Assembly (NCBI GenBank): GCA_016715895.1
Contig: JADJXH010000003.1
Span: 325,583-389,582, forward strand
DNA: 64,000 nucleotides
Source of the DNA: Flavobacteriales bacterium
GTDB taxonomy: Bacteria; Bacteroidota; Bacteroidia; Flavobacteriales_F; PHOS-HE28
Reading direction: 5' to 3'
A program made the translations under genes and the position numbers. The notes beneath the pieces were generated by a model. It did no database searches. It was not told the DNA's origin and was given only the letters and a program-made list of their open reading frames with translations. This document shows, piece by piece, positions 3,737 to 59,462 of this stretch (positions are counted from its first letter, which is position 1; every line of letters begins with the position of its first letter).

Positions 3737-6691
3737 TCAGTTCAGCCTGCTGCGCAGGTGTGCGCCTGTGAGGCTGGAAGGGTGGGCGGCCAAGGCCTCC
3801 GGGGAACCCACGAAGACGAGCTCTCCGCCGGCATCGCCGCCATCGGGTCCCAGGTCGATGACGTGGTCGGCGCAGGCGATCACCTCCATGTTGTGTTCGA
3901 TGCAGATCACACTATGCCCGTTGCGGATGAGCATGTCCAGGGCCTTGAGCAGCCGGGCGATGTCATGCACATGCAGGCCGGTGGTGGGCTCGTCGAAGAT
4001 GAAGAGGGTGGGGCGCTCCTCCTGACCCTTGGTGAGGAAGCTGGCGAGCTTGATGCGCTGGGCCTCGCCGCCGCTGAGGGTGCTGCTGCTCTGGCCGAGC
4101 TTCACATAGCCGAGGCCCACGTCCTGCAAGGGTTTCAGCCGGTGCACGATGCGGGCGCAGGCCGCCGGGCCGCTCGCGCCGCCGAAGAAGGTGATGGCGT
4201 CGTCCACGGTGAGGTCGAGCACCTCGGCGATGTCGCGGCCCTGGAAGCGGACATCGAGCATCTCCTCCTTGAATCGCTTGCCGCGGCAGGCTTCGCAGGT
4301 GAGCCGGATATCGGCCATGAACTGCATCTCGATGTGCACCTCACCCTCGCCCTGGCAGGTCTCGCAGCGGCCACCGTCCACATTGAAGCTGAAGAAGGAG
4401 GGCTTGTATCCGCGCACACGCGCCACGTCCTGCTCGCTGAAGAGCTGGCGGATCTCCTCGTAGGCCTTCACATAGGTCACCGGGTTGCTGCGGCTGCTGC
4501 GGCCGATGGGGTCCTGGTCCACGAGCTCCACGGCCTCGATGCGTTTCAGGTCCCCTTCCAGGGCGCGGTGCTCGCCGGGGCGTTCGCTGAACCCCTCCAG
4601 CTCGCGGCGCAGGGCGGGGTACAGGATGCGCTTCACCAGGGTGGTCTTGCCGCTGCCGCTCACACCGGTCACCACGGTGAGCATGTGCAGGGGGAAGGCC
4701 ACGTCGATGTCCTTCAGGTTGTTGGCCCGCGCACCCCGAACGATGATCCGGTCCTTCACGGGCCGCCGCCCGGTGGGGCGGGGGATGCGCAGACGGCCGG
4801 TGAGGTAGCGGGCCGTGAGGCTGTCGCTGGAGAGCAGGGCGGCATGGTCGCCCTGGAAGACCACCTGGCCGCCGTGCGAGCCCGCTTCGGGGCCCATGTC
4901 GATGATGTGGTCGGCCGCCCGCATCACCTCCTCGTCGTGCTCCACCACGATCACGGTGTTGCCCAGGTCGCGGAGGCGCTTCAGCACACCGATCAGGCGT
5001 TGGGTGTCGCGCGGGTGCAGGCCGATGCTGGGCTCGTCCAGGATGTACATGCTGCCCACCAGGCTGCTGCCCAGGCTGGTGGCCAGGTCGATGCGCTGGG
5101 TCTCGCCGCCGCTCAGGGTGTTGCTGCGGCGGTCGAGCGTGAGGTAGCCCACGCCCACATCGCTCAGGTATTGCAGGCGGTTGCGGATTTCGGTGAGCAG
5201 CCGGGCGGCCACATGCTGGTCATGCTCGTTCAGCTCCAGCGCGCGGAAGAACGCCAGCAGCCGGTCGATCGGCATGCGCACGAGCTCGGTGATGGTGCGG
5301 TCGGCGACGCGCACGTAGGAGGCCTCCTTCCGCAGGCGCGACCCGCCGCAGGACGGGCAGGTGGTCTTGCCCCTGTAGCGGCTGGCCAGCACGCGGTACT
5401 GGATCTTGTAGCTCTTCTCCTCCACGTACCGGAAGAAGGCATCGATGCCGCGGACGCCCCGGGCCCCCTTCCACAGCAGGTCGCGCTGCGGGTCGGTCAG
5501 GTCGCGGTAGGGCCGGTGGATGGGGAAGTCATGGCGTTCGGCCTGCTCGATGAAGGCGGTGCGCCATTCCCCCAGCTTCTCCCCGCGCCAGGGGGCCACG
5601 CATTCGTCATACACGCTCAGCCCCTGGTCGGGGATCACCAGGTCGTGGTCGATGCCGATCACGCTGCCGTAGCCTTCGCATTGGGGGCAGGCGCCCACCG
5701 GGTCGTTGAAGCTGAACAGGTTGGTGCTGGGTTCCTCGAAGCGCATGCCATCGCGCTCGAAGCGATCGTTGAGCACGGTACGGCGCACGCCCCCGCGTCC
5801 ATCGTCCCCCAGAAGGTGCAGTTCGCCCTGCCCCTCGAAGAAGGCGGCCTCGGCACTGTCCGCGATGCGGCTGTCGTTCTCGGGATCGTCGGCCGTCACG
5901 CTCACGCGGTCCACCACCAGGGACCACTCGCCCGTGGGCAGGGTACGCGCCGCCAGCAGGTCCTCGATGCGGTGCACCGTGGTGCCGTCGTGGACCCGCG
6001 CGAACCCCTGCTGGTGGAGCACATCGAGGTGTTGGGCCATCGTGCGTCCGGAGGGCAGGTGGAGCGGGCAGAGGAGGAGGACGGCCGACCCGGCCGGATG
6101 GCTGTGCACGGTCCGCAGGACGTCCTCCACGGTGTGGCGCTTCACGGGTTCGCCGCTCACCGGACTGTAGGTGCGGCCGATGCGGGCGAAGAGGAGCTTG
6201 AGGTGGTCGTAGACCTCGGTGCTGGTGCCCACGGTGCTCCGCGGGTTGCGGGTCATCACCTTCTGTTCGATGGCGATGGCCGGGCTGATCCCGATGATGC
6301 GGTCCACATCGGGTTTCTCCAGCCGGCCCATGAACTGGCGGGCGTAGCTGCTGAGGCTCTCCACGTACCGGCGTTGTCCTTCGGCATACAGGGTGTCGAA
6401 GGCCAGGCTGCTCTTGCCGCTTCCGCTGAGGCCGGTGATCACCACCAGCTTTCCCCGCGGGATGTCGACGTCGATGTTCTTCAGGTTGTGGACGCGGGCA
6501 CCCTGCACCCGGATCAGGCCGGGAGACCTGGTCGGGGCGGGCGGAGCACCGTTCGCGGAAGCGGGTGCGGACCTTCGGGTGCGGGAGGGGGTGGGCAAGA
6601 GCGGCGCGAAATTAGGCATCGGCCTGCCCGCTGTTCCCGGCAGATCACTACCTTCGCCTTGGTCCGACGAAAAGTTGACCCGGTCGCACAA
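3737..6691 (-). CDS. uvrA: Excinuclease ABC subunit A (UvrA). True start may be the internal Met at 6619 (MPNFAPLL...).
   Basis: Hallmark N-terminus [54 protein letters not shown]. Two ABC ATPase modules with zinc-finger CxxC pairs. Length and architecture are typical of UvrA. Confidence 0.95.
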
Positions 6692-12937: not shown

Positions 12938-12989
12938 AAAGTGGGGATGAGTGGCGAGTCATGAGTAGCGAGTGGCGAGTAAATGCCGC
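12938..12989. repeat. Left half of a REP-like palindromic element built from GAGTGGCGAGT units (family A), split by the IS256 insertion
   Basis: gagtggcgagtcatgagtagcgagtggcgagtaa pairs with the inverted copy at 14396-14441. A third copy of the family is at 59379-59462. Confidence 0.7.
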
Positions 12990-14375
12990 GAGACTGTTCA
13001 GTAAAGTGTGTCAGGCCGGATTGCGAACTTCAACACCTGACCCATGGAGGACAAGACGGACAAGTTCGATTACGAAGCCTTCGAGAAGGAGGCCATGAAG
13101 CAATTGCTACTGGGCAAGCCCTTGAGCGGCAGCGATGGGGTGCTGACCCCGCTGGTGAAGCGACTGATGGAGGCCTCGCTACGGGGCGAGCTGAGCGCTC
13201 ACCTGGCCGAGGAGCCGCCTGGAGGTAACCGGCGCAACGGACATGGGCGCAAGCGGATGAAGACCGCCCACGGAGAGGTGGAGATCGCCACGCCGCGCGA
13301 CCGTGAGGGAACCTTTGACCCGGTGCTGCTGCCCAAGCGCGAGCGCGTGCTGAACGCCGAGCTGGACATGAAGATCATCAAGCTCTACGGGCTTGGGATG
13401 AGCCAGCGCGACATAAGCGACCATGTGCGGGACCTGTACGGCATCGAGGTGAGCGAGGCCACGATCAGCGCGGTGACCGACCAGGTGATCGCCGATGTAC
13501 AGACCTGGCGGCAGCGGCCCTTGGAGGCGCGCTACGCGATCGTGTGGCTCGATGCCATCCACTTCAAGGTGAAGCAGGAAGGGCGCGTGGTGAACAAGGC
13601 CGTATACACCGCCTTGGGCGTTGGCCCCGATGGCCACAAGGACCTGCTGGGCCTGTACGTGGGGCAGAGCGAAGGGGCCAAGTTCTGGCTGGGCGTGCTG
13701 GGCGACCTGCGCCAACGCGGCGTGGAGGACATGCTGATCGCATGCATCGACAACCTGAGCGGCTTCTCCGACGCGATCTCCTTGGTGTACCCACAGAGCG
13801 ATATCCAGCTCTGCATCGTGCACCAGGTGCGCAATACCCTGAAGTACGTCAGCTACAAGCACTACAAGGAGGTGGTCAAGGACATGCGGGCCATCTACCG
13901 GGCTCCTGGTGAGCAGCAAGCGCTGCATGCCCTGGAGGTCTTCAGCGACAAATGGGGGGAACGCTACCCGCAGGCGGTGAGCTCCTGGCACACCAACTGG
14001 CCGCTGCTGGCCAGCCAGTACCGCTACAGCGAGCGCATCCGGCGGCTCATCTACACCACCAATCCCATCGAGGGCTTCCACGCTCAGCTGCGCAAGTACA
14101 CCAAGACCAAGCGCGTCTTCGACAACGACATGGCCCTGCTCAAGCTGCTCTATCTGGCCCAGCAGCGCATCGTGGAGAAAATGGCCGCCAAGCCCATCTT
14201 CGCTTGGAGGGAGATAGCCGCCGAGCTACGCCTGCTCTTCGGCCCACGCTTCGATCCACAGGCGATCAACACCGATCAACAGGTTCTGAGTCTCCCCCGG
14301 ACCCCCTCGTTCAAAACCCAACAACATCAACATCGTCAGCAATAACGATGATGACACACTTTATCTAACAGACCC
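12990..14375 (+). mobile_element. Complete IS256-family insertion sequence (1386 bp) with 24-bp imperfect terminal inverted repeats, flanked by an 8-bp direct target duplication AATGCCGC
   Basis: IRL gagactgttcagtaaagtgtgtca (12990-13013). IRR reverse-complement gggtctgttagataaagtgtgtca (14352-14375). They match 19/24 and share the IS256-like GATAAAGT terminal motif. AATGCCGC is present at both 12982-12989 and 14376-14383. Confidence 0.85.
13044..14345 (+). CDS. IS256 family (mutator-type) transposase
   Basis: 433 aa with conserved IS256 blocks ...YAIVWLDAIHFKVKQEGRVVNKAVYTALGVGPDGHKDLLGLYVG...LIACIDNLSGFSDAISLVYPQSDIQLCIVHQVRN...SWHTNWPLL...YTTNPIEGFHAQLRKYTKTK (DDE triad context). Confidence 0.95.
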   Translation: MEDKTDKFDYEAFEKEAMKQLLLGKPLSGSDGVLTPLVKRLMEASLRGELSAHLAEEPPGGNRRNGHGRKRMKTAHGEVEIATPRDREGTFDPVLLPKRERVLNAELDMKIIKLYGLGMSQRDISDHVRDLYGIEVSEATISAVTDQVIADVQTWRQRPLEARYAIVWLDAIHFKVKQEGRVVNKAVYTALGVGPDGHKDLLGLYVGQSEGAKFWLGVLGDLRQRGVEDMLIACIDNLSGFSDAISLVYPQSDIQLCIVHQVRNTLKYVSYKHYKEVVKDMRAIYRAPGEQQALHALEVFSDKWGERYPQAVSSWHTNWPLLASQYRYSERIRRLIYTTNPIEGFHAQLRKYTKTKRVFDNDMALLKLLYLAQQRIVEKMAAKPIFAWREIAAELRLLFGPRFDPQAINTDQQVLSLPRTPSFKTQQHQHRQQ

Positions 14376-14383
14376 AATGCCGC

Positions 14384-14441
14384 CAACCGACATTTCCTGA
14401 GGCGGACATTTTACTCACCACTCACTACTCGCCACTCATGA
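14384..14441. repeat. Right half of the family-A REP-like palindrome disrupted by IS256
   Basis: ggcggacattttactcaccactcactactcgccactcatgactcgccactg is the reverse complement of the left half at 12938-12989. Confidence 0.7.
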
Positions 14442-14470
14442 CTCGCCACTGCCCACGTACTTTCGCAGAC

Positions 14471-30961: not shown

Positions 30962-31092
30962 TGCAAATTTCGGTGAATGGCTGAAAGTGAATGGGAGTTG
31001 GTTGGTGGTGAATGGCGAATGGTCAATGGTGAATGGGGAATGCCGCCGGGCTAGCGTTCCATTCACCAACTCCCATTCACCATTCACCGCAT
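30962..31092. repeat. REP-like palindromic cluster built from GTGAATGG / GGCGAATGG units (family B) between the GH38 gene and yciH
   Basis: Left arm gtgaatgggagttggttggtggtgaatggcgaatggtcaatggtgaatgggg, loop ccgccgggctagcg, right arm ttccattcaccaactcccattcaccattcacc. A second family-B copy is at 58995-59075. Confidence 0.75.
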
Positions 31093-38526: not shown

Positions 38527-39012
38527 ATGCGCATTGAGCGGATACCGGATGACAACCCTGTCGTGCCGGATGTCATTTGCTCAGAGAAGTCCGTTGGTGA
38601 ACCTGAAGTGCATGCATCAGCGCTATTTCGAGTGCATCATTCGAGCGAGAGCTTCACATTGAGGGTTGAATGGGCCAGCGACCATTCCGCCAGAGATGTT
38701 GAGGAGTCCGACTTTCTATTGATCCCGGAGACGGGAACGATCTTCTTCAGAACGTTGTATCAATGGGGGGTGCTCGACGTTCGGCGAGCGGCGCTCGTTC
38801 GACATGAGAAGGCGATGTACAGGCCATTCATCAGCAGGCATGGGAGCTTTGTCGTGATCGAAGATGAACTGCAAGCGGAGTCTACGGACCTTTGGGGAAG
38901 GCACGTTCATTCAGTACCGATCGATCCACCTTGGGATGCCGTTGAGCATGATGATCGCATCGAGTATGATTGTCCGGTGTATGGCAGGCAGGTTCTCAGG
39001 CTGACCAGGTGA
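38527..39012 (+). CDS. Hypothetical protein in a low-GC insertion
   Basis: 161-aa ORF. Local GC is about 50% versus about 67% flanking. Adjacent to the IS110-family element. No recognisable domain. Confidence 0.35.
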   Translation: MRIERIPDDNPVVPDVICSEKSVGEPEVHASALFRVHHSSESFTLRVEWASDHSARDVEESDFLLIPETGTIFFRTLYQWGVLDVRRAALVRHEKAMYRPFISRHGSFVVIEDELQAESTDLWGRHVHSVPIDPPWDAVEHDDRIEYDCPVYGRQVLRLTR

Positions 39013-40436
39013 TCTGTTCTCCTTGGAAAGGCGGATAGGACGTTCCGGCGCGGCCCAATGCGCCGCGCCGTCGGGCCATTCGCTCGTAGTCCTCGCCGCC
39101 CTCGCCCGGCCTTGAGCCGGGGTTCGTGCGGCTGTGGGCTACCCGCTGCTGCTCTACACTTGGACGCTTGGAAGATGAAGCATCTTCGAAGTGAACAATT
39201 CCTCCGAAGGAGGCTGAGCAGGATCACAGGTGAACCAGTCCGCTGCGAAGGTGTGATGACCTATAGCGATTATCGGTACCTGCGGTCCCTCAGGTCTGAG
39301 GCTTGGATAGAATGTGAGGCTCACGGCCTACTAGAGTTGTCAAGTTCAGGACCCGATGCTCAGCGCTCCCCCAGGGGATCGTGTGTCACCCAAAAGTAAA
39401 CGAACATGAAACACTGGATCGGGATCGACGTGAGCAAGGCGACACTGGATGTGGCCCTGCTGGATGAACGCGGGACGCTGACCGCTGAGACCAAGGTGGA
39501 GAACACCACCAGAAGCGTGAAGACACTACTGCGTCGATGGACCAAGGAGTTCGCACCGGTCAAAGGAGAATACCTGGTGTGCCTGGAGCCCACGGGCTAC
39601 TACGGCCATGCGCTGCTGGAAGTGTTGGTGGAATTGGAGATCCCCACCTGGCTTGCTCATCCCAACGACATCAAGCAGAGCATCGGAATGACCCGGGGAA
39701 AGAGCGACCGAGTGGATGCGCTCAGGATCGCCGACTACGCCCGGCGCTTCCAAGACAAGTCGCGGTTGTTCACGGCCGACCAGCTGAAGATGAACAAGCT
39801 CAAGCAGCTCCTGAGCAAGCGCCAGAACTACGTGATGCGCAAGACCATGCACCAGCGGCAGATCAAGGACATGAACAAGCTCATGGACAAGGACCTGCGC
39901 GGGCCGTTCACCCGGTTCGATAAGGCACAGATCAAAGCGCTGGACAAGGCGATCAAGGAACTGGAAGGCATGATCGAGGACACCATCAACGCGGAGCCCG
40001 AGTTGAGCAAGCGCTTCGAACTGCTGAAGTCCGTGGAAGGCGTTGGGCTCATTCTGGGCTCACATCTGCGGGCCCTCACCGACGGCTTCACGCGATTCAC
40101 CTCACCGCGACAGCTAGCTTGCCATGCCGGATGCGCACCCTTCGAGAACAGGTCAGGCACCAGCATCAGAGGGCGCACCCGCGTATCGCACAATGCCAAC
40201 CATACGCTCAAGGCCCTGCTGCATGTCTCGGTGGTCGGGCTCATCCGGTTCCCTGGTGAGTTCCGCGCCTACTACGACCGCAAAGTGGCCGAGGGCAAAC
40301 ACAAGATGCTTGTCTTCAACGCCATGCGCAACAAACTCATCCACCGCGTCTGTGCCGTGATCCGAAAGGGAGTGCCTTACGAGATACGAACACCCCTTGC
40401 ACACGTCATAGAATAATCCCTAACGCGGAATGCCGG
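39013..40436 (+). mobile_element. IS110-family insertion element: ~390-bp non-coding 5' leader plus DEDD transposase, with no terminal inverted repeats, as expected for this family. Left boundary approximate; 3' end abuts a family-C repeat.
   Basis: The transposase gene is preceded by a long leader containing only a 113-aa non-protein-like ORF. Element plus neighbouring ORF form a low-GC block (38480-40440). High-GC sequence resumes immediately after, starting with repeat ctgcatcatctgtgtccatccgtgtccatctgtgg. Confidence 0.55.
39406..40416 (+). CDS. IS110 family transposase (DEDD/RuvC-like N-terminal domain plus C-terminal Tnp domain)
   Basis: MKHWIGIDVSKATLDVALLDE...VCLEPTGYYGHALLEVL... (DEDD N-domain). 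...LKSVEGVGLILGSHLRALTDGFTRFTSPRQLACHAGCAPFENRSGTSIRGRTRVSHNANHTLKALLHVSVV... is a typical IS110/IS1111 C-terminal domain. Confidence 0.95.
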   Translation: MKHWIGIDVSKATLDVALLDERGTLTAETKVENTTRSVKTLLRRWTKEFAPVKGEYLVCLEPTGYYGHALLEVLVELEIPTWLAHPNDIKQSIGMTRGKSDRVDALRIADYARRFQDKSRLFTADQLKMNKLKQLLSKRQNYVMRKTMHQRQIKDMNKLMDKDLRGPFTRFDKAQIKALDKAIKELEGMIEDTINAEPELSKRFELLKSVEGVGLILGSHLRALTDGFTRFTSPRQLACHAGCAPFENRSGTSIRGRTRVSHNANHTLKALLHVSVVGLIRFPGEFRAYYDRKVAEGKHKMLVFNAMRNKLIHRVCAVIRKGVPYEIRTPLAHVIE

Positions 40437-40488
40437 CTGCATCATCTGTGTCCATCCGTGTCCATCTGTGGTTCGCTGCATTCACCCC
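40437..40488 (+). repeat. Family-C repeat (GCATCATCTGTGTCCATCCGTGTCCATCTGTGGTT...CCCC) immediately 3' of the IS110 element
   Basis: Internally three tandem CATC[TC]GTGTC decamers. Four further copies lie at 44787-44819 (inverted), 45204-45243, 45301-45345 and 45361-45405. Confidence 0.75.
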
Positions 40489-40898
40489 GTGTACACCCAC
40501 ATCCCACCCGCGCACAGCAGGAAGTAGGGCACCAGGCTCGCGGCCCCCGCGTAGTCCTTTGCCACGCGCTGGCCGAAGAAGAGCAGGGTGATCGCCAACG
40601 CCCCCAAGGTGCACCCCCAGGCCCCCAGGGTCGGGTCGCCGTGGAGGCCGACCTGCAACAGGCCGATCGCGGCGCACGCCCCGGCCGACAGTTCAATGGC
40701 CGTGATCACCGGCAGCAGCAGCGGCACCGTGCCCTTCAGCGGCGACTTCGCGAAGTGGCCGGTCAGCCAGGCCAGGTTCCCTTTCCAGTCCAGGGCCTTG
40801 TCCAGCCCCGATTGCAGGAAGAGGATGGCCACCATGGCGGTGAAGGCCATGCGCAGCAGGTCGATGCCGGTGTAGCCGAACAGGATGCCCGATTCCAT
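40482..40898 (-). CDS. DoxX family membrane protein
   Basis: About 138 aa from MESGILFGYTGIDLLRMAFTAMVAILFLQSGLDK. Four TM helices with a DoxX-like pattern. The upstream part of the ORF is an extension through repeat sequence. Confidence 0.65.
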   Translation of the reverse strand: MESGILFGYTGIDLLRMAFTAMVAILFLQSGLDKALDWKGNLAWLTGHFAKSPLKGTVPLLLPVITAIELSAGACAAIGLLQVGLHGDPTLGAWGCTLGALAITLLFFGQRVAKDYAGAASLVPYFLLCAGGMWVYTG

Positions 40899-41029
40899 GG
40901 CGTGAAGGTGCGGGTTCCGATGACAAAACGAGGCATTCCCACGGCTCGTTCGATCTGAGCCGGAAATGGGGCGGTGGATGAACATCCGGGGTGGGCGATC
41001 TCCCAACACGGTACTTGTTCAGATCCTGA

Positions 41030-41968
41030 TCATGGCAAGATGAACCGTCCGTGGCCCGTGCCATGGTCACCCGACCAGCTCAGGATGTATGCGCCTTTTG
41101 GGAGTTGGCTCACATCCAGCCCGCCATCCGACATGGACCGGCCATGGGAGACGGTCTTCCCATGGACGTCCCGGATCATCCAGGTGGCATTCGGCTCCAT
41201 TGACCTCACCCCGACCCGAGCGCCGTTGGCATCCAGCCAGATCATGGCTTCTGAAGTGGGGCTGTCCTCACTGATGGACAGGGGTGAGGTGTCCGCGCTT
41301 ATGTCGAGGTTGTCAAAAGCGGCATACCCTGATGCTTGAAGGTCGATCAGCACGGTGACCGTCCCATTGGAGGAGGCGCTAACGTCCAGAGCGGCACCGA
41401 CGGTGGTCCAATTGAAGGAGAATGGATCCGAAGAAGGGGGGCCACCGGTCAGCGTGGCATCATCCAACACCATACCGGGCGAATTGATGTTGAACGCACC
41501 CGAGGGCGTGTCGAACACGGTCACCTGGAAGATGGGAGCGGCCGTTCCGAACGGGGCACCACAACCGGAGACTTCGATGCCCGAAATGTCCATTGTCAGG
41601 TTCACATAGGGAAGACCGTCGCTGTCCAGTGTCAAGGCCGCTTTGTCATTCTGTTGGGCCGTCTGAAGCCCAATGCAGTAATCACCGCCGATGCCGGCCT
41701 GGTCGGTATACACATTACCGGGACCATTGATCAACAAGGTCTCAACAGTAAAGGTCTGTGCCCAATTGCCACCGCCTCCTGTCCCACCACCTGTGCCGGC
41801 CCAAAGATCGTTCACTGCCTGCTGGCTGATGTCCGTACCGCACGCGGCGGTGGTCACGGCCATGTTCGGGCTCGTGAAAGCGTTCGAATACAACGTGATG
41901 GTCTGGGCGACCAGCGGGGTCGTCAAAGCGAACGGGGTACCAATGGTGAAAAGGTAGATGTGACGCAT
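41030..41968 (-). CDS. Secreted hypothetical protein with T9SS type-A C-terminal sorting domain
   Basis: Signal peptide MRHIYLFTIGTPFALTTPLVAQ. C-terminal ...LPKGAYILSWSGDHGTGHGRFILP. Confidence 0.6.
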   Translation of the reverse strand: MRHIYLFTIGTPFALTTPLVAQTITLYSNAFTSPNMAVTTAACGTDISQQAVNDLWAGTGGGTGGGGNWAQTFTVETLLINGPGNVYTDQAGIGGDYCIGLQTAQQNDKAALTLDSDGLPYVNLTMDISGIEVSGCGAPFGTAAPIFQVTVFDTPSGAFNINSPGMVLDDATLTGGPPSSDPFSFNWTTVGAALDVSASSNGTVTVLIDLQASGYAAFDNLDISADTSPLSISEDSPTSEAMIWLDANGARVGVRSMEPNATWMIRDVHGKTVSHGRSMSDGGLDVSQLPKGAYILSWSGDHGTGHGRFILP

Positions 41969-42128
41969 GGTGGTCTCATTTTTCACAAAGTAAGACTAGG
42001 AATGGCCATTGTTCCCCGAGCCTGTGCTCCCGAAGAATATGGATGGACATGCATCGCGTACTTCTTCGGACCAACTGGCGGAGCGGCTTGGACCGGTCAC
42101 ATCGTCCCAACCGCTTTCCTTTGTGGCC

Positions 42129-43211
42129 ATGCACCTCTTCCGGAATTTCAAGTCCGTCACCAAGACCTGCTACGGCCGCGGCAGCTTCGGCAAGCTGGGC
42201 GAGATCCTTGAGCCGCACCGCAACACGGGCAAGGGCTTCATGGTCTTCCTGGTGGACCACTACTTCCAGGACAAGACCGACTTCCTCGCCCGCATCCCGA
42301 AGCAGGAGGGCGACGAGCTCATCTTCTGCAGCACGAAGAAGGAGCCGAGCACCGAGCAGATCGATGGGCTGCGCGACGACATCCTTGGGCGCCGCGGCCT
42401 TCCTGCCGGTGTGGTGGGCGTCGGTGGCGGCAACGTGATGGACGTGGCCAAGGCGCTCTCGCTCATGTTCACCAACGCGGGCAGCAGCGTGCAGTACCAG
42501 GGCCTCAACCTGATCAAGAAGCCCGGCATCTACCATTGCGGCGTGCCCACCATCAGTGGCACCGGGGCGGAGGTGAGCATGACCGCCGTGCTCACCGGCC
42601 CCGTGAAGAAGCTCGGCCTCAAGTGCGACTGGACCGTCTTCGACCAGATCGTGCTAGACCCGGACCTCATCGCCTCCGTGCCCACCGACCAGTGGTTCTA
42701 CACGGGCATGGACACCTACATCCACAGCGTGGAAGCCATCACCGGCACCAAGAAGAACACCTTCGCCGAGGCCTACAGCGAGAAGGCGCTCGACCTATGC
42801 CGCGAGGTGTACCTGAAGCGCGACCGCAGCGACCCCAAGAGCGACGAGCTGCTGATGGTGGCCAGCTACATGGGTGGCCTCAGCCTCACCTACAGCGAGG
42901 TGGGCGTGTGCCACGCGCTGAGCTACGGCCTGGGCAAGGTGCTGGAGATGCACCACTGCTTCGCGAACTGCGTGGCCTTCAACCAGCTGGAGGACGTGTA
43001 TGGCGAATACGTGCAGGAGTTCAAGCACATGGTGAAGGAGCGCGGCGTGAACCTGGCCGCCAACCTCAGCAAGGACTGGGACGAGAAGACCCTCGACGCC
43101 ATGGCCGAAGTGGCCTACAACCTGCCGCACATGTGGGACCACGCCTTCGGCCCGGACTGGCAGCAGGTGCTGGACCGCGAGCGGATCAAGGGGTGGTACA
43201 GGCGGATGTGA
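42129..43211 (+). CDS. Iron-containing (group III) alcohol dehydrogenase family protein
   Basis: GGGSxxD-type motif VGGGNVMDVAKAL. Downstream metal-binding His-containing blocks ...DTYIHSVEAI...CHALSYGLG...; start taken at MHLFRNF. Confidence 0.8.
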   Translation: MHLFRNFKSVTKTCYGRGSFGKLGEILEPHRNTGKGFMVFLVDHYFQDKTDFLARIPKQEGDELIFCSTKKEPSTEQIDGLRDDILGRRGLPAGVVGVGGGNVMDVAKALSLMFTNAGSSVQYQGLNLIKKPGIYHCGVPTISGTGAEVSMTAVLTGPVKKLGLKCDWTVFDQIVLDPDLIASVPTDQWFYTGMDTYIHSVEAITGTKKNTFAEAYSEKALDLCREVYLKRDRSDPKSDELLMVASYMGGLSLTYSEVGVCHALSYGLGKVLEMHHCFANCVAFNQLEDVYGEYVQEFKHMVKERGVNLAANLSKDWDEKTLDAMAEVAYNLPHMWDHAFGPDWQQVLDRERIKGWYRRM

Positions 43212-43300
43212 GTCCGATCAGAGGATCAGCGAATGAGATGATCAGTGAATGGACCTCTGCGGCGATCATCATCTGATCTTCTGATCAACTCATTATCCGA

Positions 43301-43636
43301 TCAACCCAAGAACGCCCCATCCACCACAAGCATCTTCACCGGGCCGTTGGTGCGCGACCGGTGCGAACTGAGCCCGTCGCTGACGTGATAGGACATGCCG
43401 GCCTGTAGCACGTTCACCGTCCCGTCTTCGTGCTCGTTGATCAGTTCGCCTTCCAGCACGAAGACCAGGTGTCCGAGCTGGCACCAATGGTCGGTGAGGT
43501 AGCCTGCTGAATACTCCACCATCCGAATACGCAACCCTTGGTGCTGCACGGTGCGCATGGTGGCCGTGCCGGTGGTGCCGTTCACCGTGGTGGTCGGCAG
43601 CTGTGACCAGTCAATGGTTTCGAAGGGGATCTGCAT
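43301..43636 (-). CDS. Cupin domain protein
   Basis: 111 aa with a two-motif cupin beta-barrel pattern (...RMVEYSAGYLTDHWCQLGHLVFVLEGEL...). Confidence 0.6.
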   Translation of the reverse strand: MQIPFETIDWSQLPTTTVNGTTGTATMRTVQHQGLRIRMVEYSAGYLTDHWCQLGHLVFVLEGELINEHEDGTVNVLQAGMSYHVSDGLSSHRSRTNGPVKMLVVDGAFLG

Positions 43637-43656
43637 TCAGTGATCAGTTGTCGTTC

Positions 43657-44034
43657 CTAAAATGGCGCCGCCAGCGCGATCACATGGCCGTCCGGGTCGG
43701 CGAAGTAGGCCACCCGGTCGCCCCAGTCTCGGTCGGTGGCGGGGGAGACCGCGGTAAGACCGGCCTGCACCGCTCGCGCGATCGCCGCATCCAGGTCATC
43801 CACGCGCAGGTAGAGCTCGCAACGCGGCACACCATGCCCGGCATCGGGGTGGGGCAGGGCGGGCGTAATGATGCGGGCGATGCCGCTGGCAGGCATCAGG
43901 CCCAGCGTGCAGCCGCCCAGGTCGAACTCGGTCATGCCCGGCACGTCGAGCACCGGTTCACGGTCCAGCAACAACCGGTACAGGTCGCGGCTGCGCTGCT
44001 GGTCCTGCACGTAGAGGATGAACTCGGCCTGCAT
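43657..44034 (-). CDS. VOC (glyoxalase/bleomycin-resistance/dioxygenase) family protein
   Basis: About 125 aa; C-terminal ...AYFADPDGHVIALAAP is a typical VOC signature. Confidence 0.6.
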   Translation of the reverse strand: MQAEFILYVQDQQRSRDLYRLLLDREPVLDVPGMTEFDLGGCTLGLMPASGIARIITPALPHPDAGHGVPRCELYLRVDDLDAAIARAVQAGLTAVSPATDRDWGDRVAYFADPDGHVIALAAPF

Positions 44035-44044
44035 CGCTTCAAAG

Positions 44045-44818
44045 ATGGCGTTCCTCCCCATCTTCGGCGCGGCGATGCATCACCTGCTGCACCTGGTCTT
44101 CGAGCTGGCCGCCTTCGCGGTGGGCTACGCCTACTTCCAGCGGCTGCGCGCAGGGCAGGGCGATCCCATCCCCGAGCCGAAGCGCGTATGGATCATCATC
44201 GGTGCGGCGGCCGGGGCCCTGCTGGGCTCGCGGGTGCTGGGCGCGCTGGAGGATCCAGCCAAGCTCGCCGCCGATGGCTTGGCCCTCTTCATCGCATTCA
44301 ATAACCGCACGATCGTGGGCGGACTGCTCGGCGGGCTGGTGGGGGTGGAGCTCACCAAGAAGCTGATCGGTGTCCGTACCAGCAGCGGCGACCTCTTCAC
44401 CTACCCGCTGATCCTGGGCATGATGATCGGTCGCGTGGGCTGCCTGCTCGGTGGGCTGGAGGACAACACCTACGGCACGCCCACGGACCTGCCCTGGGGC
44501 ATCGACCTTGGCGATGGCGTGCGCCGGCATCCCACCAACCTCTACGAGATCCTGTGGCTGGGTGCGCTTTGGATGCTGTTGCGCGGGGTTGAACGCCGGT
44601 GGACCCTCGCGAACGGTGCGCGTTTCAAGCTCTTCATGGTGGGCTACCTGCTCTTCCGCCTGGCCGTAGAGGCCATCAAGCCGCAGCCCATCATTGCCCT
44701 CGGCCTTTCAACCATCCAGTGGGCCTGCGCGGCCGGACTCCTGTATTACTTCAAGGTGTGGCTGACGCCACGGTCCTTGGTTATTCAACCACAGATGAAC
44801 ACGGATGGACACAGATAG
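44045..44818 (+). CDS. lgt: Prolipoprotein diacylglyceryl transferase; the 3' end runs into a family-C repeat
   Basis: Lgt signature HPTNLYEILWLGALWMLL (HPTQLYE-type). ...GRVGCLLGG...; multi-TM. Confidence 0.75.
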   Translation: MAFLPIFGAAMHHLLHLVFELAAFAVGYAYFQRLRAGQGDPIPEPKRVWIIIGAAAGALLGSRVLGALEDPAKLAADGLALFIAFNNRTIVGGLLGGLVGVELTKKLIGVRTSSGDLFTYPLILGMMIGRVGCLLGGLEDNTYGTPTDLPWGIDLGDGVRRHPTNLYEILWLGALWMLLRGVERRWTLANGARFKLFMVGYLLFRLAVEAIKPQPIIALGLSTIQWACAAGLLYYFKVWLTPRSLVIQPQMNTDGHR

Positions 44819-44819
44819 G
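44787..44819 (-). repeat. Family-C repeat copy in inverted orientation, overlapping the lgt 3' end and the GxxExxY start codon
   Basis: aaccacagatgaacacggatggacacagatagg is the reverse complement of CCTATCTGTGTCCATCCGTGTTCATCTGTGGTT. Confidence 0.75.
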
Positions 44820-45197
44820 AAAGGACAGGACGGTTATCCGCTCGCGAGCGAGACAGAGGAGGTCATTGGCTGTGCCATGGAGGTGCTGAACGTGCTGGGG
44901 CATGGCCTGCTCGAGAAGCCCTATGAGAACGCCTTGGTGGTGGAGTTCAGGCTGCGCGGCATCCCTTTCGAGCAACAGCCCGCCTTCGATGTGCTCTACA
45001 AGAACGAACAGGTCGGTTTGTATGTGCCGGACCTGATCGTGCGGGAGGCTGTGGTCGTGGATGCCAAGACCATCGACCGCATCACCGATCACGAGCTCGG
45101 CCAGATGCTCAACTACCTGCGCATCACCGGCCATCGCGTCGGACTGATCCTGAACTTCAAGCGCGCCAAGCTCGAATGGAAACGCGTCATTCTCTGA
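44805..45197 (+). CDS. GxxExxY family protein (PD-(D/E)xK nuclease superfamily)
   Basis: ...EEVIGCAMEVLNVLGHGLLEKPYENALVVEFRLRGIPFEQQ...GLYVPDLIVREAVVVDAKTI...LGQMLNYLRITGHRVGLILNF matches the GxxExxY family motifs (here GLLEKPY) and the PD-D/ExK core (D...E.K). Confidence 0.8.
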   Translation: MDTDRKGQDGYPLASETEEVIGCAMEVLNVLGHGLLEKPYENALVVEFRLRGIPFEQQPAFDVLYKNEQVGLYVPDLIVREAVVVDAKTIDRITDHELGQMLNYLRITGHRVGLILNFKRAKLEWKRVIL

Positions 45198-45203
45198 CCA
45201 TGC

Positions 45204-45405
45204 GCGCTCATCTGTGTGCATCTGTGTCCATCAGTGGTTCCCCTTCCGCGAAGGCGAAGCCGAGCGCCGCCCGCATGGAGTTCGGATGCAATGCTGATCT
45301 ACGCATTCATCTGTGTCCATCCGTGTCCATCAGTGGTTGTGCCCCACGCTGGCCAGCCCGTCGCATTCATCTGTGTTCATCCGTGTCCATCTGTGGTTAT
45401 TCCCC
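45204..45405 (+). repeat. Cluster of three direct family-C repeat copies (45204-45243, 45301-45345, 45361-45405) immediately downstream of the GxxExxY gene
   Basis: The copies are about 90-95% identical to each other and to the 40437 copy. Spacers are irregular (57 and 15 bp). Confidence 0.75.
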
Positions 45406-45410
45406 CTCCC

Positions 45411-46817
45411 ATGCCTGAACGCCCCTACACCTACTACGACTTCACGCTGAGCCTGTGCCCGACGTGCCTGAAGCGCATCGACGCCAAGGTGATCTTCGAG
45501 GACGATCGCGTGTACATGCTGAAGCGCTGTCCCGAGCACGGGGCGCAGAAGGTGCTCATCGCCACCGATGTGGACTACTACAAGCGCTGCCGGCACTACC
45601 TGAAGCCCGGCGAGATGGTGCGCACCTTCAACACGAAGACCCATTACGGCTGTCCGTACGATTGCGGCATCTGCCCGGACCACGAGCAGCACGGCTGCCT
45701 CACGCTGATCGAGGTCACCGACCGCTGCAACCTGGAGTGCCCCATCTGCTACGCCAGCAGCGGGCCCATGCACGGCAGGCACCGCACGCTGGAGGAGGTG
45801 GAGCGCATGCTCGATGCCGCCGTACGCAACGAGGGTGAACCCGATGTGGTGCAGCTCAGCGGCGGCGAACCCACGGTGCATCCGCAGTTCTTCGAGATCC
45901 TCGATGCGGCCAAGCGCCGGCCCATCCGCCACCTGATGGTGAACACCAACGGCATCCGCATCGCCAAGGACAAGGCCTTCGCGGAGCGCCTCGCCACCTA
46001 CATGCCGGACTTCGAGCTGTACCTGCAGTTCGACTCGTTCAAGCCCGAGGTGCTGAAGCGGCTGCGCGGGGAGGACCTCACCGCTGTGCGCATGAAGGCC
46101 CTGGAGCACCTGAACGAGCTCAACCTCAGCACCACGCTGGTGGTGACGGTGGAGAAGGGTGTGAACGACGACGAAGTGGGCGCCATCATCGACTTCGCCC
46201 TGAAGCAGCGCTGCGTGCGGGGCGTCACCTTCCAGCCGGTGCAGGCCGCAGGCAGGACCGAGCACTACGACCCCGCCACCGACCGCATCACGCTCACCGA
46301 GGTGCGGCAGGCCATCCTGGACCAGGCACCGCTGTTCACGCCGGAGGACATCGTGCCCGTGCCCTGCAACCCCGACGCGCTCGCCATGGGCTACGCGCTG
46401 AAGCTAGGCAGCGAGGTGTTCCCGCTCACGCGCATGATCGACCCGGACGACCTGCTGAACAACAGCCGCAACACCATCGTGTACGAGCAGGATGCCCGCC
46501 TGAAGGAGCACATGGTGAAGCTCTTCAGCACCGGCACACCCAGCGACAAGGCGCACGAGACGCTCCACCGGATCATGTGCTGCCTGCCCGACATCGACGC
46601 GCCGGAGCTGCGGTACGAGAACCTTTTCCGCATCATCATCATGCGCTTCATCGACGCCTACGACTTCGACGTGCGGGCCATCAAGCGCAGTTGCGTCCAC
46701 ATCATCGACCCGCGCACGATGAACGCGATCCCCTTCGAGACGATGAACCTGTTCTACCGGGAGGAGGCGCAACGGATGCGGTTGGCGGAACTGCAGCAAG
46801 CAGCATCTACCTTGTGA
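45411..46817 (+). CDS. Radical SAM protein with an N-terminal Cys-rich zinc-ribbon-like segment (~468 aa)
   Basis: CX3CX2C motif CNLECPIC. Upstream Cys pairs CPTC...CPEHG and CPYDCGICPDHEQHGC. ...QLSGGEPT... SAM-binding glycine motif. Start placed at MPERPYTYYDF after the repeat cluster. Confidence 0.75.
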   Translation: MPERPYTYYDFTLSLCPTCLKRIDAKVIFEDDRVYMLKRCPEHGAQKVLIATDVDYYKRCRHYLKPGEMVRTFNTKTHYGCPYDCGICPDHEQHGCLTLIEVTDRCNLECPICYASSGPMHGRHRTLEEVERMLDAAVRNEGEPDVVQLSGGEPTVHPQFFEILDAAKRRPIRHLMVNTNGIRIAKDKAFAERLATYMPDFELYLQFDSFKPEVLKRLRGEDLTAVRMKALEHLNELNLSTTLVVTVEKGVNDDEVGAIIDFALKQRCVRGVTFQPVQAAGRTEHYDPATDRITLTEVRQAILDQAPLFTPEDIVPVPCNPDALAMGYALKLGSEVFPLTRMIDPDDLLNNSRNTIVYEQDARLKEHMVKLFSTGTPSDKAHETLHRIMCCLPDIDAPELRYENLFRIIIMRFIDAYDFDVRAIKRSCVHIIDPRTMNAIPFETMNLFYREEAQRMRLAELQQAASTL

Positions 46818-58249: not shown

Positions 58250-59002
58250 CTACCACTCCGCCCCCGGGTACGCCCGCTGCAGGTATTGCATCTCGGCCAG
58301 GATGAAGCCGAGGTGCTCGCTGTGCTTGCCTTGGCGACCGCCCGTGGCCATGAAGCCGTCGGCGGGGCGCTTCAGCGTGGCCTCGGCCAGCACCTTGTCC
58401 ACGGTGGCGTCGAAGGCGGCCTTCATCTTGGCGAGGTCGGGCGCGATGCCGGCCTTCAGCAGTTGCTGGTGAACCTCGTCCATCACGAAGAGGTCGCCGC
58501 TGTAGGTCCACAGGTTGTCGAGGGCCTCCTGGGCACGGCGGTGGCTTTCCTCCGTGCCGTCGCCGAAGCGGATCAGCCAGTCGCTGCTGTGCTTCACGTG
58601 GTACTGGGCCTCCTTCACGGCCTTGGCGGCGATGGCGGCCAGCTGGGCATCGGTGCTCTTGGTAAGCGCCTCGGCCAGCGGCAGGTGGTAGGCATCGAAC
58701 AGGAAGCTCCGCACGATGGTATGCGCGTAGTCGCCGTTGGGCTGCTCCACCAGCTTGGTGTTCACGAACTGCCGCTCGTTGCGCAGGTAGGCCAGGGCAT
58801 CCTCGTCACGTCCCTTGCCCTCCACCTGTCCGGCGTAGGTGTACAGGTTGCGGGCTTCGCCAATGTGGTCCAGCGCCCGGTTGGTGAGGGCGATGTCCTC
58901 CTCCAGCACGGGGCCGTGGCCGCACCACTCGCTCAAGCGGTGGCTCAGGATGAGGAGGTCGTCCGCGAGGCGAAGGCTATACGTGAAGAGGGCGTTGCTC
59001 AT
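58250..59002 (-). CDS. paaC: 1,2-phenylacetyl-CoA epoxidase subunit C
   Basis: MSNALFTYSLRLADDLLILSHRLSEWCGHGPVLEEDIALTN... is the canonical PaaC (formerly PaaI) N-terminus. Confidence 0.85.
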   Translation of the reverse strand: MSNALFTYSLRLADDLLILSHRLSEWCGHGPVLEEDIALTNRALDHIGEARNLYTYAGQVEGKGRDEDALAYLRNERQFVNTKLVEQPNGDYAHTIVRSFLFDAYHLPLAEALTKSTDAQLAAIAAKAVKEAQYHVKHSSDWLIRFGDGTEESHRRAQEALDNLWTYSGDLFVMDEVHQQLLKAGIAPDLAKMKAAFDATVDKVLAEATLKRPADGFMATGGRQGKHSEHLGFILAEMQYLQRAYPGAEW

Positions 59003-59075
59003 GGTGAATGGGAGTTGGCGAATGGTGAATGGGAAAGCGTTCAGGCGCTATTCACCAACTTCCATTCGCCAGTCA
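58995..59075. repeat. Family-B REP-like palindrome (GTGAATGG units) between paaB and paaC, overlapping the paaC start codon
   Basis: ggtgaatgggagttggcgaatggtgaatggg ... attcaccaacttccattcgccagtcac (inverted arms). Confidence 0.75.
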
Positions 59076-59378: not shown

Positions 59379-59462
59379 TGAGTGGCGAGTGGCGAGCGAA
59401 GAGTAACGAGTGGCACTGCGGAAGCAGACTCGCCACTCGTCACTCGCTACTCGCCACTCGGA
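59379..59462. repeat. Family-A REP-like palindrome (GAGTGGCGAGT units) between paaA and paaB
   Basis: ggtgagtggcgagtggcgagcgaagagtaacgagtggcac tgcggaagcag actcgccactcgtcactcgctactcgccactcgg (inverted arms around a loop). Confidence 0.75.

Follow-up and report, generated by a model that had tools for sequence, protein, structure and literature searches.

In the REP/REPIN-RAYT systems (REPtrons), a small nuclease-type gene for a repetitive extragenic palindrome (REP)-associated tyrosine transposase (RAYT) lies between inverted short repeats, and gene-less copies of the repeat, often as hairpin doublets, are dispersed and far more numerous than the gene. The gene is inherited vertically under purifying selection, and the repeat variants are genome- or locus-specific. 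We found similar traits, the gene-less excess in metagenome contigs, for a locus in a 64,000-nucleotide stretch of a Flavobacteriales bacterium genome (GenBank contig JADJXH010000003.1, positions 325,583 to 389,582; hereafter the window). There, a 30-nt repeat built from three tandem decamers, which we term the arm, brackets in inverted orientation a gene of the GxxExxY family (PDDEXK_3, PF13366). Comparison across phyla supports the inverted bracketing as a conserved property of this GxxExxY subfamily and not a local accident. An arm accompanied the gene with a probability of about 0.96, whereas a gene accompanied an arm with a probability of about 0.03. We propose, with a confidence that falls slightly short of an even chance, that the decamer repeat forms the arms of a hairpin element of wide distribution (arm, loop, inverted arm), that the GxxExxY gene is the protein-coding version of this hairpin, and that nuclease and arm are partners.

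The locus differs from a REPtron in three respects. First, the protein is a PD-(D/E)xK protein (PF13366) and not an HUH Y1 transposase (PF01797), so RAYT chemistry is inapplicable. In addition, the arm is not palindromic, lacks a GTAG-type foot or 5' tetranucleotide and consists of three tandem decamers. Finally, the decamer system spans many phyla at 65-80% protein identity. An earlier description made from the letters of the window (the sequence-only reading) had called the architecture REPtron-like. The inverted bracketing, now seen in at least 10 phyla, and the excess of gene-less copies uphold that likeness; the non-palindromic arm and the non-HUH protein limit it. The same reading took the repeat for a genomic repeat family clustered near the gene. 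The association proved real, but the arm belongs to a compact cassette and to a widespread hairpin element.

Other described elements offer partial parallels. Miniature inverted-repeat transposable elements (MITEs) with their parent insertion sequences (IS) and the Rickettsia palindromic elements resemble the decamer system in their terminal inverted arms, the many gene-less derivatives per coding copy, the nested insertions, the in-frame insertion into coding genes and the presence/absence polymorphism. Unlike these, the decamer cassette encodes only a 130-aa PD-(D/E)xK protein and no DDE, serine or tyrosine transposase, no target-site duplication was established for the decamer element, and the coding copy found here is an old one that does not move. 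PD-(D/E)xK homing endonuclease genes such as that of I-Ssp6803I are likewise small stand-alone restriction-fold genes inside a sequence that also exists empty. However, the decamer cassette has no intron or intein, its targets would be dispersed repeats rather than one allele, and it has been under long-term purifying selection. The ORF-bearing 23S rRNA intervening sequences (PF05635, a four-helix bundle) combine a small open reading frame (ORF) of unknown function with inverted repeats and a long transcript stem; the cassette differs in its protein fold and in lying outside rRNA. The short tandemly repeated repetitive (STRR) sequences of cyanobacteria are intergenic tandem 7-10-mer arrays, as are the decamer arms and the heptamer hairpins of the window. 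STRR have been described, to our knowledge, as repeats only, and we know of no report of an associated gene or of a strict three-unit inverted-arm structure among them.

The window was searched with the pattern CATCYGTGTCCATCYGTGG, allowing at most 3 mismatches. This degenerate 19-mer gave 11 overlapping matches against 0.15 expected, and none of 100 shuffled sequences reached 11. Ten of the matches merged into five 30-nt units, each consisting of three tandem decamers; the eleventh (62644, 3 mismatches, within a coding region) is probably due to chance. Repeat finders recovered the same units with a period of 10, the inverted copies being 93-97% complementary to one another. On the + strand, four units (40444-40473, 45210-45239, 45309-45338 and 45369-45398) read ATC[TC]GTGT..GTGGTT, and the unit at 44787-44816 is their reverse complement (AACCACAGATGAACACGGATGGACACAGAT). 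The arm is made of three direct decamers with an AACCAC terminus and has no internal palindrome. Four of the five arms bracket the GxxExxY gene in inverted orientation, and the fifth is solo:

44787..44816, + strand: left arm; three decamers on the gene strand, AACCACAGATG AACACGGATG GACACAGAT
44805..45197, + strand: GxxExxY / PDDEXK_3 nuclease gene, 130 aa
45210..45239, - strand: right arm copy 1; the + strand reads ATCTGTGTGC ATCTGTGTCC ATCAGTGGTT; 13 nt past the GxxExxY stop
45309..45338, - strand: right arm copy 2, 99 nt after copy 1
45369..45398, - strand: right arm copy 3, 60 nt after copy 2; its end lies 12 nt before the start codon of the radical-SAM gene (45411)
40444..40473, - strand: solo arm, at the 3' end of a 139-aa gene (40482-40901, - strand)

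The left arm holds both the GxxExxY start codon (ATG 44805, the earliest in-frame start codon of the ORF) and the stop codon of the upstream lgt gene (44816-44818). The sequence-only reading had listed five copies of a repeat, one inverted over the GxxExxY start and three direct ones after its stop, and had stated that the repeat supplies the only available ATG of GxxExxY and the last codons of lgt. Our analysis bore out this description, the ATG being the first in frame and the five copies being the three-decamer arms listed above (44787-44816 and 45210-45398 around the gene). We also observed that the arms give rise to spurious ORFs, for example with ...ICVHPCPSVV... peptides, and donate start and stop codons to their neighbours.

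The 44805-45197 product matched TIGR04256 (E 5e-38, 130 bits, cut-off 35) and, as its sole Pfam match, PF13366 (E 4e-36, 124 bits, cut-off 22). Its motifs are intact (G34xxE37xxY40, P75-D76 and D86-x-K88), with the PD-(D/E)xK signature on a restriction-endonuclease-like fold, and it is the only GxxExxY gene in the window. The PADLOC defence-system models and the PHROG models gave no match. A scan of IMG/VR, in which protein alignment and patterns were used, yielded no confirmed relative and no sign of phage carriage.

To place the locus among its relatives, one genome per species was scanned, which gave 80 loci with a protein identity of at least 65%; the analyses were made on 84 genes. The relatives came from at least 10 phyla, at 65-80% protein identity across many of them. 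The loci span Flavobacteriales, other Bacteroidota, Planctomycetota, Verrucomicrobiota, Kiritimatiellia, Lentisphaeria, Armatimonadota, Hydrogenedentota, Terriglobia, Desulfobacterales, Zetaproteobacteria and Methylococcaceae. Nearly all genes had (G)GAACCAC..ATG.ACAC..AT..ACAC..AT upstream and its reverse complement downstream, and at least one arm was present at 81 of the 84. A flanking inverted-repeat score of 15 or more was reached by 81% of the 84 genes and by 0.27% of 742 control ORFs from the same loci. The arm always comprised three decamers, and the third was strongly conserved though the search pattern had left it free. A loose arm pattern gave 320 matches in the 864 kb searched, against about 5 chance matches calculated. 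With L and R for left and right arm, 39 genes had the layout L-gene-R(n), the most common one. It was followed by L-gene-[L-loop-R], with 10 genes or about 15 if close variants are counted, and by [L-loop-R]-gene-[L-loop-R], with 5. The bracketing is also legible in the proteins. The N-terminal peptides MNTDGHG, MDTDKHG, MDADGHG or MNTNGHE, found in about 40% of the 120 closest homologues and in 27% of 150 representatives clustered at 50% identity, are the left arm in translation and occurred in none of the control proteins.

The two arms of a locus vary together. Arm variants differed by lineage (CACGGATG, CACAGATG, CACGAATG, CGCGAATG and CACAAATG), and the right arm tracked the left. Arms formed 28.7 of 36 Watson-Crick pairs with their own partner but 26.1 when matched to arms of other loci; the own-partner value was reached in none of 5000 permutations. 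Arm positions 7, 17 and 27 carried both G-C and A-T pairs with few mismatches. In addition, the three decamers of one arm co-varied with one another (48 GGG, 12 AAA and 5 mixed). Base pairing cannot account for this co-variation, which points either to three recognition sites of equal standing or to ongoing homogenisation. Mismatches between arms were not biased toward G.U (57) over A.C (70), which argues for a constraint at the DNA level and not on the sense RNA. Arm variants were locus-specific at orthologous positions (L054 compared with L064), and the proteins with AATG-type arms were not monophyletic. We also noted pairs of cassettes in one genome (L063 and L089 of one Desulfobacterales metagenome-assembled genome (MAG)) or directly adjacent (L053 5993-6900) that differ in arm variant (CACGAAT versus CACAGAT/CACGGAT). 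The variant seems to travel with the gene and not to be fixed by the host genome.

These data bear on a different explanation, in which the arms form an expression module in RNA. A long-range stem would hide the start codon, offer a site for a double-strand RNase, gate translation and insulate the operon, on the model of the ORF-bearing 23S rRNA intervening sequences, and the target of the nuclease would be unrelated, for example foreign DNA or repair intermediates. The position of the start codon inside the left arm agrees with this, as does a GGAGG-like run directly before the GxxExxY start codon outside Bacteroidota. The minimum-free-energy fold of the transcript is predicted to pair the left arm, start codon included, with right arm copy 1 around the whole ORF (z -2.8). 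The upstream neighbour was co-oriented with the cassette at 67 of 75 loci (89%) and the downstream neighbour at 58 of 78, and cassettes occupied tight intergenic gaps within operons, including type III restriction-modification (R-M) operons. The gene looks promoterless and, on this folding model, the stem may gate it; transcription is probably shared with the host operon from lgt to the radical-SAM gene. This appearance is compatible with a nuclease-arm partnership without being specific to it. However, an RNA module does not account for the missing G.U bias, and a stem has no need of decamers that co-vary among themselves. Most arms are gene-less, solo or within coding genes, where such a role would be meaningless, and at some loci (L017) the left arm lies at least 50 nt upstream of the start codon. 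The Rfam 15 covariance models, moreover, gave no match with E up to 1 across 40300-45600. We regard an RNA-level module as unlikely.

In the converse test, the exact arm pattern was run against metagenome contigs, giving 120 loci, in which 77 arms had 550 nt or more of sequence to either side. A PF13366 gene lay within 300 nt of 2 of the 77 arms, and anywhere in 5 of the 120 loci. The other 75 arms had no gene nearby, a figure that comes from metagenome contigs and not from per-genome counts. Most metagenome arms were gene-less hairpins with loops of 10-170 nt (at least 39% of the arms) or solo arms, and the loops often held nested hairpins of other tandem oligomers. At two Lentisphaeria-type loci (L054 2649-4850 and L064 40-1491), hairpins were inserted in frame within a type III mod gene, as two arm-loop-arm insertions with peptides EPRIDTNKHES...ISVHSCPFVV. 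One mod homologue (P0397) is without the second insertion and another (P0432) without either, which indicates presence/absence polymorphism. No consistent target-site duplication was seen at the hairpin flanks or at the mod-gene insertion; the linker around the latter had diverged, and there was no clean filled/empty pair at nucleotide resolution. In L054, left-type arms also give start codons to a YhcG/DUF1016 PD-(D/E)xK gene and a RhuM-family gene (1492-2633 and 4860-5977), and these genes share the type III R-M operon with the GxxExxY cassette.

Tandem-oligomer hairpins of several other families occur in the same genome. In the window, inverted GAGTGGC/GAGTAGC heptamer arrays (12947-12981 and 14412-14450) enclose an IS256-family gene (ORF 13044-14345, Transposase_mut E 1e-100), and the IS256 element appears to occupy a heptamer-hairpin loop, much as the decamer hairpin holds the GxxExxY gene. 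Gene-less intergenic hairpins of the GGTGAATGG, GAGTGGC and GATCAGAG types lie at 30972-31088, 59001-59070, 59380-59460 and 43216-43303. A cognate small gene for these families is absent from the window.

Hairpins that exist with and without a gene could also mean that the gene is a selfish, homing-like invader of loops. The hairpins would then spread by other means, the nuclease would cut empty hairpins with short loops, and repair would copy the gene into the loop, where it would split the palindromic target and so shield its own site. The gene does lie precisely at the loop of an element of which empty forms occur as well, and loops also receive other hairpins and an IS256. The L-gene-[L-loop-R] layouts resemble a gene and an arm added onto an existing hairpin. 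A 30-nt arm is about the minimum length for homologous repair, and I-Ssp6803I is a known small PD-(D/E)xK homing endonuclease. With the gene at only about 3% of arms, however, invasion would have to be very inefficient. The finding that PF13366 subfamilies have their own oligomer arms, described below, is unexplained unless recognition is specific, and loop invasion then merges with the nuclease-arm partnership. The history of the locus also bears on this explanation. The host genes concerned are:

44018..44818, + strand: Lgt-like host gene, upstream of and co-oriented with the cassette; the left arm supplies its last codons and stop
45411..46817, + strand: radical-SAM (TrsS/Tes-like; rSAM) host gene, downstream of and co-oriented with the cassette
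39406..40416, + strand: IS110-family transposase gene, outside the repeat system

In close relatives, which are MAGs of activated-sludge Flavobacteriales, the order lgt-GxxExxY-rSAM was kept with 1 to 5 right arms. The window has three, spaced 99 and 60 nt (45203-45405), other strains have 1-2, and L002 (10405-10830) has five tandem copies of a 99-nt unit that includes the downstream arm. The divergence of GxxExxY tracked that of the neighbouring genes, as seen in the protein identities to the window:

L014: GxxExxY 97%, rSAM 97%, Lgt 96%
L015: GxxExxY 89%, rSAM 91%, Lgt 76%
L019: GxxExxY 82%, rSAM 83%, Lgt 68%
L020: GxxExxY 80%, rSAM 81%, Lgt 71%

The GxxExxY gene had a dN/dS of 0.02-0.08, equal to or below that of the rSAM gene, and arms were still present where dS exceeded 2. 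The G+C content of the cassette was 58.8% against 65.1% for the window. Two relatives had no GxxExxY gene. In L091 (rSAM 81% identical), a 44-nt spacer without an arm takes its place, and L092 (rSAM 87% identical) has only a decayed right arm. In relatives without the cassette, the Lgt C-termini differ. The lgt-rSAM comparison proposed in the sequence-only reading did reveal differences in the presence of gene and arms, both being missing from L091 and an arm remnant being left in L092. The retention of the site in distant relatives, the low dN/dS and the absence of the gene from L091 and L092 indicate an old insertion that has been inherited vertically, kept by selection and occasionally lost. 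Homing genes normally decay once fixed, and an old, vertically inherited cassette under strong purifying selection weighs against loop invasion, which we consider unlikely although it retains appreciable weight.

Two further observations concern this locus. In L092 (3905-4000), two copies of a 19-20-nt palindrome, CCTGCCGGCCGGCAGG, interrupt the right arm at the junctions between decamers. In addition, the dS of GxxExxY against L002 and L013 was 0.71-0.77, more than twice the rSAM dS against L002 (0.30; the rSAM value is for L002 only), and Lgt was also more diverged. This difference between GxxExxY/Lgt and rSAM suggests a recombination breakpoint near the right arms.

The solo arm at 40444 lies about 27 nt past the stop codon of the IS110 transposase (40416) and about 25 nt from the right end of the IS. 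Homology between the window and L013 starts about 2 nt before that stop codon and runs through the solo arm, and L013 has no IS110 there; the solo arm is therefore host sequence and not part of the IS. The sequence-only reading had one repeat copy abutting the 3' end of the IS110 element. The two are near each other but not joined. Its alternative, that the repeat is an IS110 integration target, finds no support, given the distance and the arm of L013. The exact IS110 transposase gave no record on look-up, and alignment gave no placement for the left IS110 junction. Across window 40416-40482, the solo decamer arm was found in two genomes (the window and L013) and was absent from L002, L011 and L014, in which a RAYT-type REP (GCGACCCC..GGGGTCGC) replaces it between conserved flanks. 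The 3' end of the 139-aa gene is a hot spot of turnover where small palindromic elements swap. In the relatives, a Y1_Tnp (RAYT-like) gene with palindromic REPs (GCGACCCCTTCGGGGTCGC) stands in the place of the IS110 (L002 6200-6930, equivalent to window 39000-40480), a few kb from the cassette, and a true REP/RAYT system thus coexists with the decamer system in this lineage. We considered this Y1_Tnp/RAYT gene as the partner of the decamer repeat and rejected it, since it is flanked by the different palindromic REP and not by decamer arms.

The proximity of one arm copy to an IS110 element, together with the position of other tandem-oligomer hairpins of the window between genes, some of them convergent, where terminators are expected, might be taken to mean that the arm is an ordinary host signal. 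It would be a regulatory or terminator site or an IS110 target, and its nearness to a nuclease gene would be meaningless. Such a signal does not fit the flanking arms, which accompany 81 of 84 genes across unrelated contexts and phyla, or the empty orthologous site of L091, which has no arm. Between the end of the IS110 and the arm there are 25 nt, and in L013 the arm occurs where no IS is present. In several gene-less hairpins (few loci, by inspection), a T run precedes the stem and does not follow it, unlike in intrinsic terminators. A coincidental host signal is thus a very improbable explanation, and we regard chance, a host terminator and an IS110 target as effectively ruled out.

The layout extends beyond the decamer subfamily. 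Distant PF13366 genes show it with other oligomers, namely GCGCAGAGG 9-mers (L043), CACAAAG 8-mers (L032) and GCCAAGA 8-mers (L204). Among cultured strains, Bacteroides finegoldii (protein WP_032839887.1) has arms of CACAGAGGA 9-mers, and Bernardetia has CACAGAGA units. Plasmids in PLSDB carried distant family members only, and these too had other oligomer arms. Different subfamilies with different arms and the same layout are what specific recognition would produce. The GxxExxY/PDDEXK_3 family comprises 11,023 clusters at 50% identity. A 2012 survey of the superfamily lists the function of PDDEXK_3 as 'Unknown' and notes 'Multiple transfers' (PMC3424549). A full-text literature search, which did not cover all journals, found no account linking GxxExxY, PDDEXK_3 or PF13366 to repeats or hairpins. 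It is possible, though we hold this more doubtfully than the account of the decamer system, that PF13366/GxxExxY nucleases and tandem-oligomer hairpins are phylum-spanning repeat-nuclease symbionts, each subfamily with its own 8-10-mer arm spread by cutting and repair or gene conversion.

The structural link between gene and arm is shown by the architecture, its conservation across phyla, the gene-less excess, the co-variation of the arms, the insertion polymorphism and the purifying selection on the gene. From this we infer binding or cutting of the arms by the protein, and that their spread is driven in this way. In the mechanism that we propose, a promoterless PD-(D/E)xK ORF would reside in the loop between inverted arms, with its start codon inside the left arm. 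The nuclease would recognise the arms, either in duplex DNA or in a hairpin extruded from it, at three sites per arm that are 10 bp apart, about one helical turn. It would break the DNA, and other copies that bear arms would then serve host repair or gene conversion, which would spread and homogenise the arms and would keep the gene embedded in them. Since a lone hydrolytic PD-(D/E)xK nuclease is incapable of strand transfer, spread would proceed via cutting and repair and not by transposase chemistry. The best reading, by analogy with REPIN/RAYT, would be that a dispersed repeat has a lasting partner in one conserved nuclease gene, which is inherited vertically and here encodes another fold.

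Several observations weigh against this partnership. Over a long divergence the cassette has kept to a single site, so there has been little recent movement of the gene itself. No residue of the protein clearly tracks GATG-type versus AATG-type arms, the only difference being a conservative I/V change. Arms also precede unrelated genes (RhuM and YhcG) and IS elements also occur in hairpin loops; these loops may simply be permissive landing sites. Finally, the upstream co-orientation at 89% of loci and the predicted sequestration of the start codon in a stem fit an RNA-level role of the arms equally well. The nuclease-arm partnership, the loop-invading gene and the RNA-level module are not mutually exclusive.

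For the GxxExxY nucleases of this subfamily, the inverted three-decamer arms that bracket almost every gene are themselves a concrete candidate substrate. The great surplus of hairpins without a gene likewise suggests a definite role in evolution. Should the nuclease-arm partnership be confirmed, it would be a second, mechanistically different domesticated repeat-nuclease partnership beside REP/RAYT. It would also explain the tandem-oligomer hairpins in intergenic and coding regions of Bacteroidota, Verrucomicrobiota, Planctomycetota and other phyla, and compact sequence- or structure-specific nucleases might follow from it. If the phylum-spanning reading is true as well, it would provide a non-HUH, non-transposase counterpart of REPIN-RAYT and would explain the function of a large orphan family.

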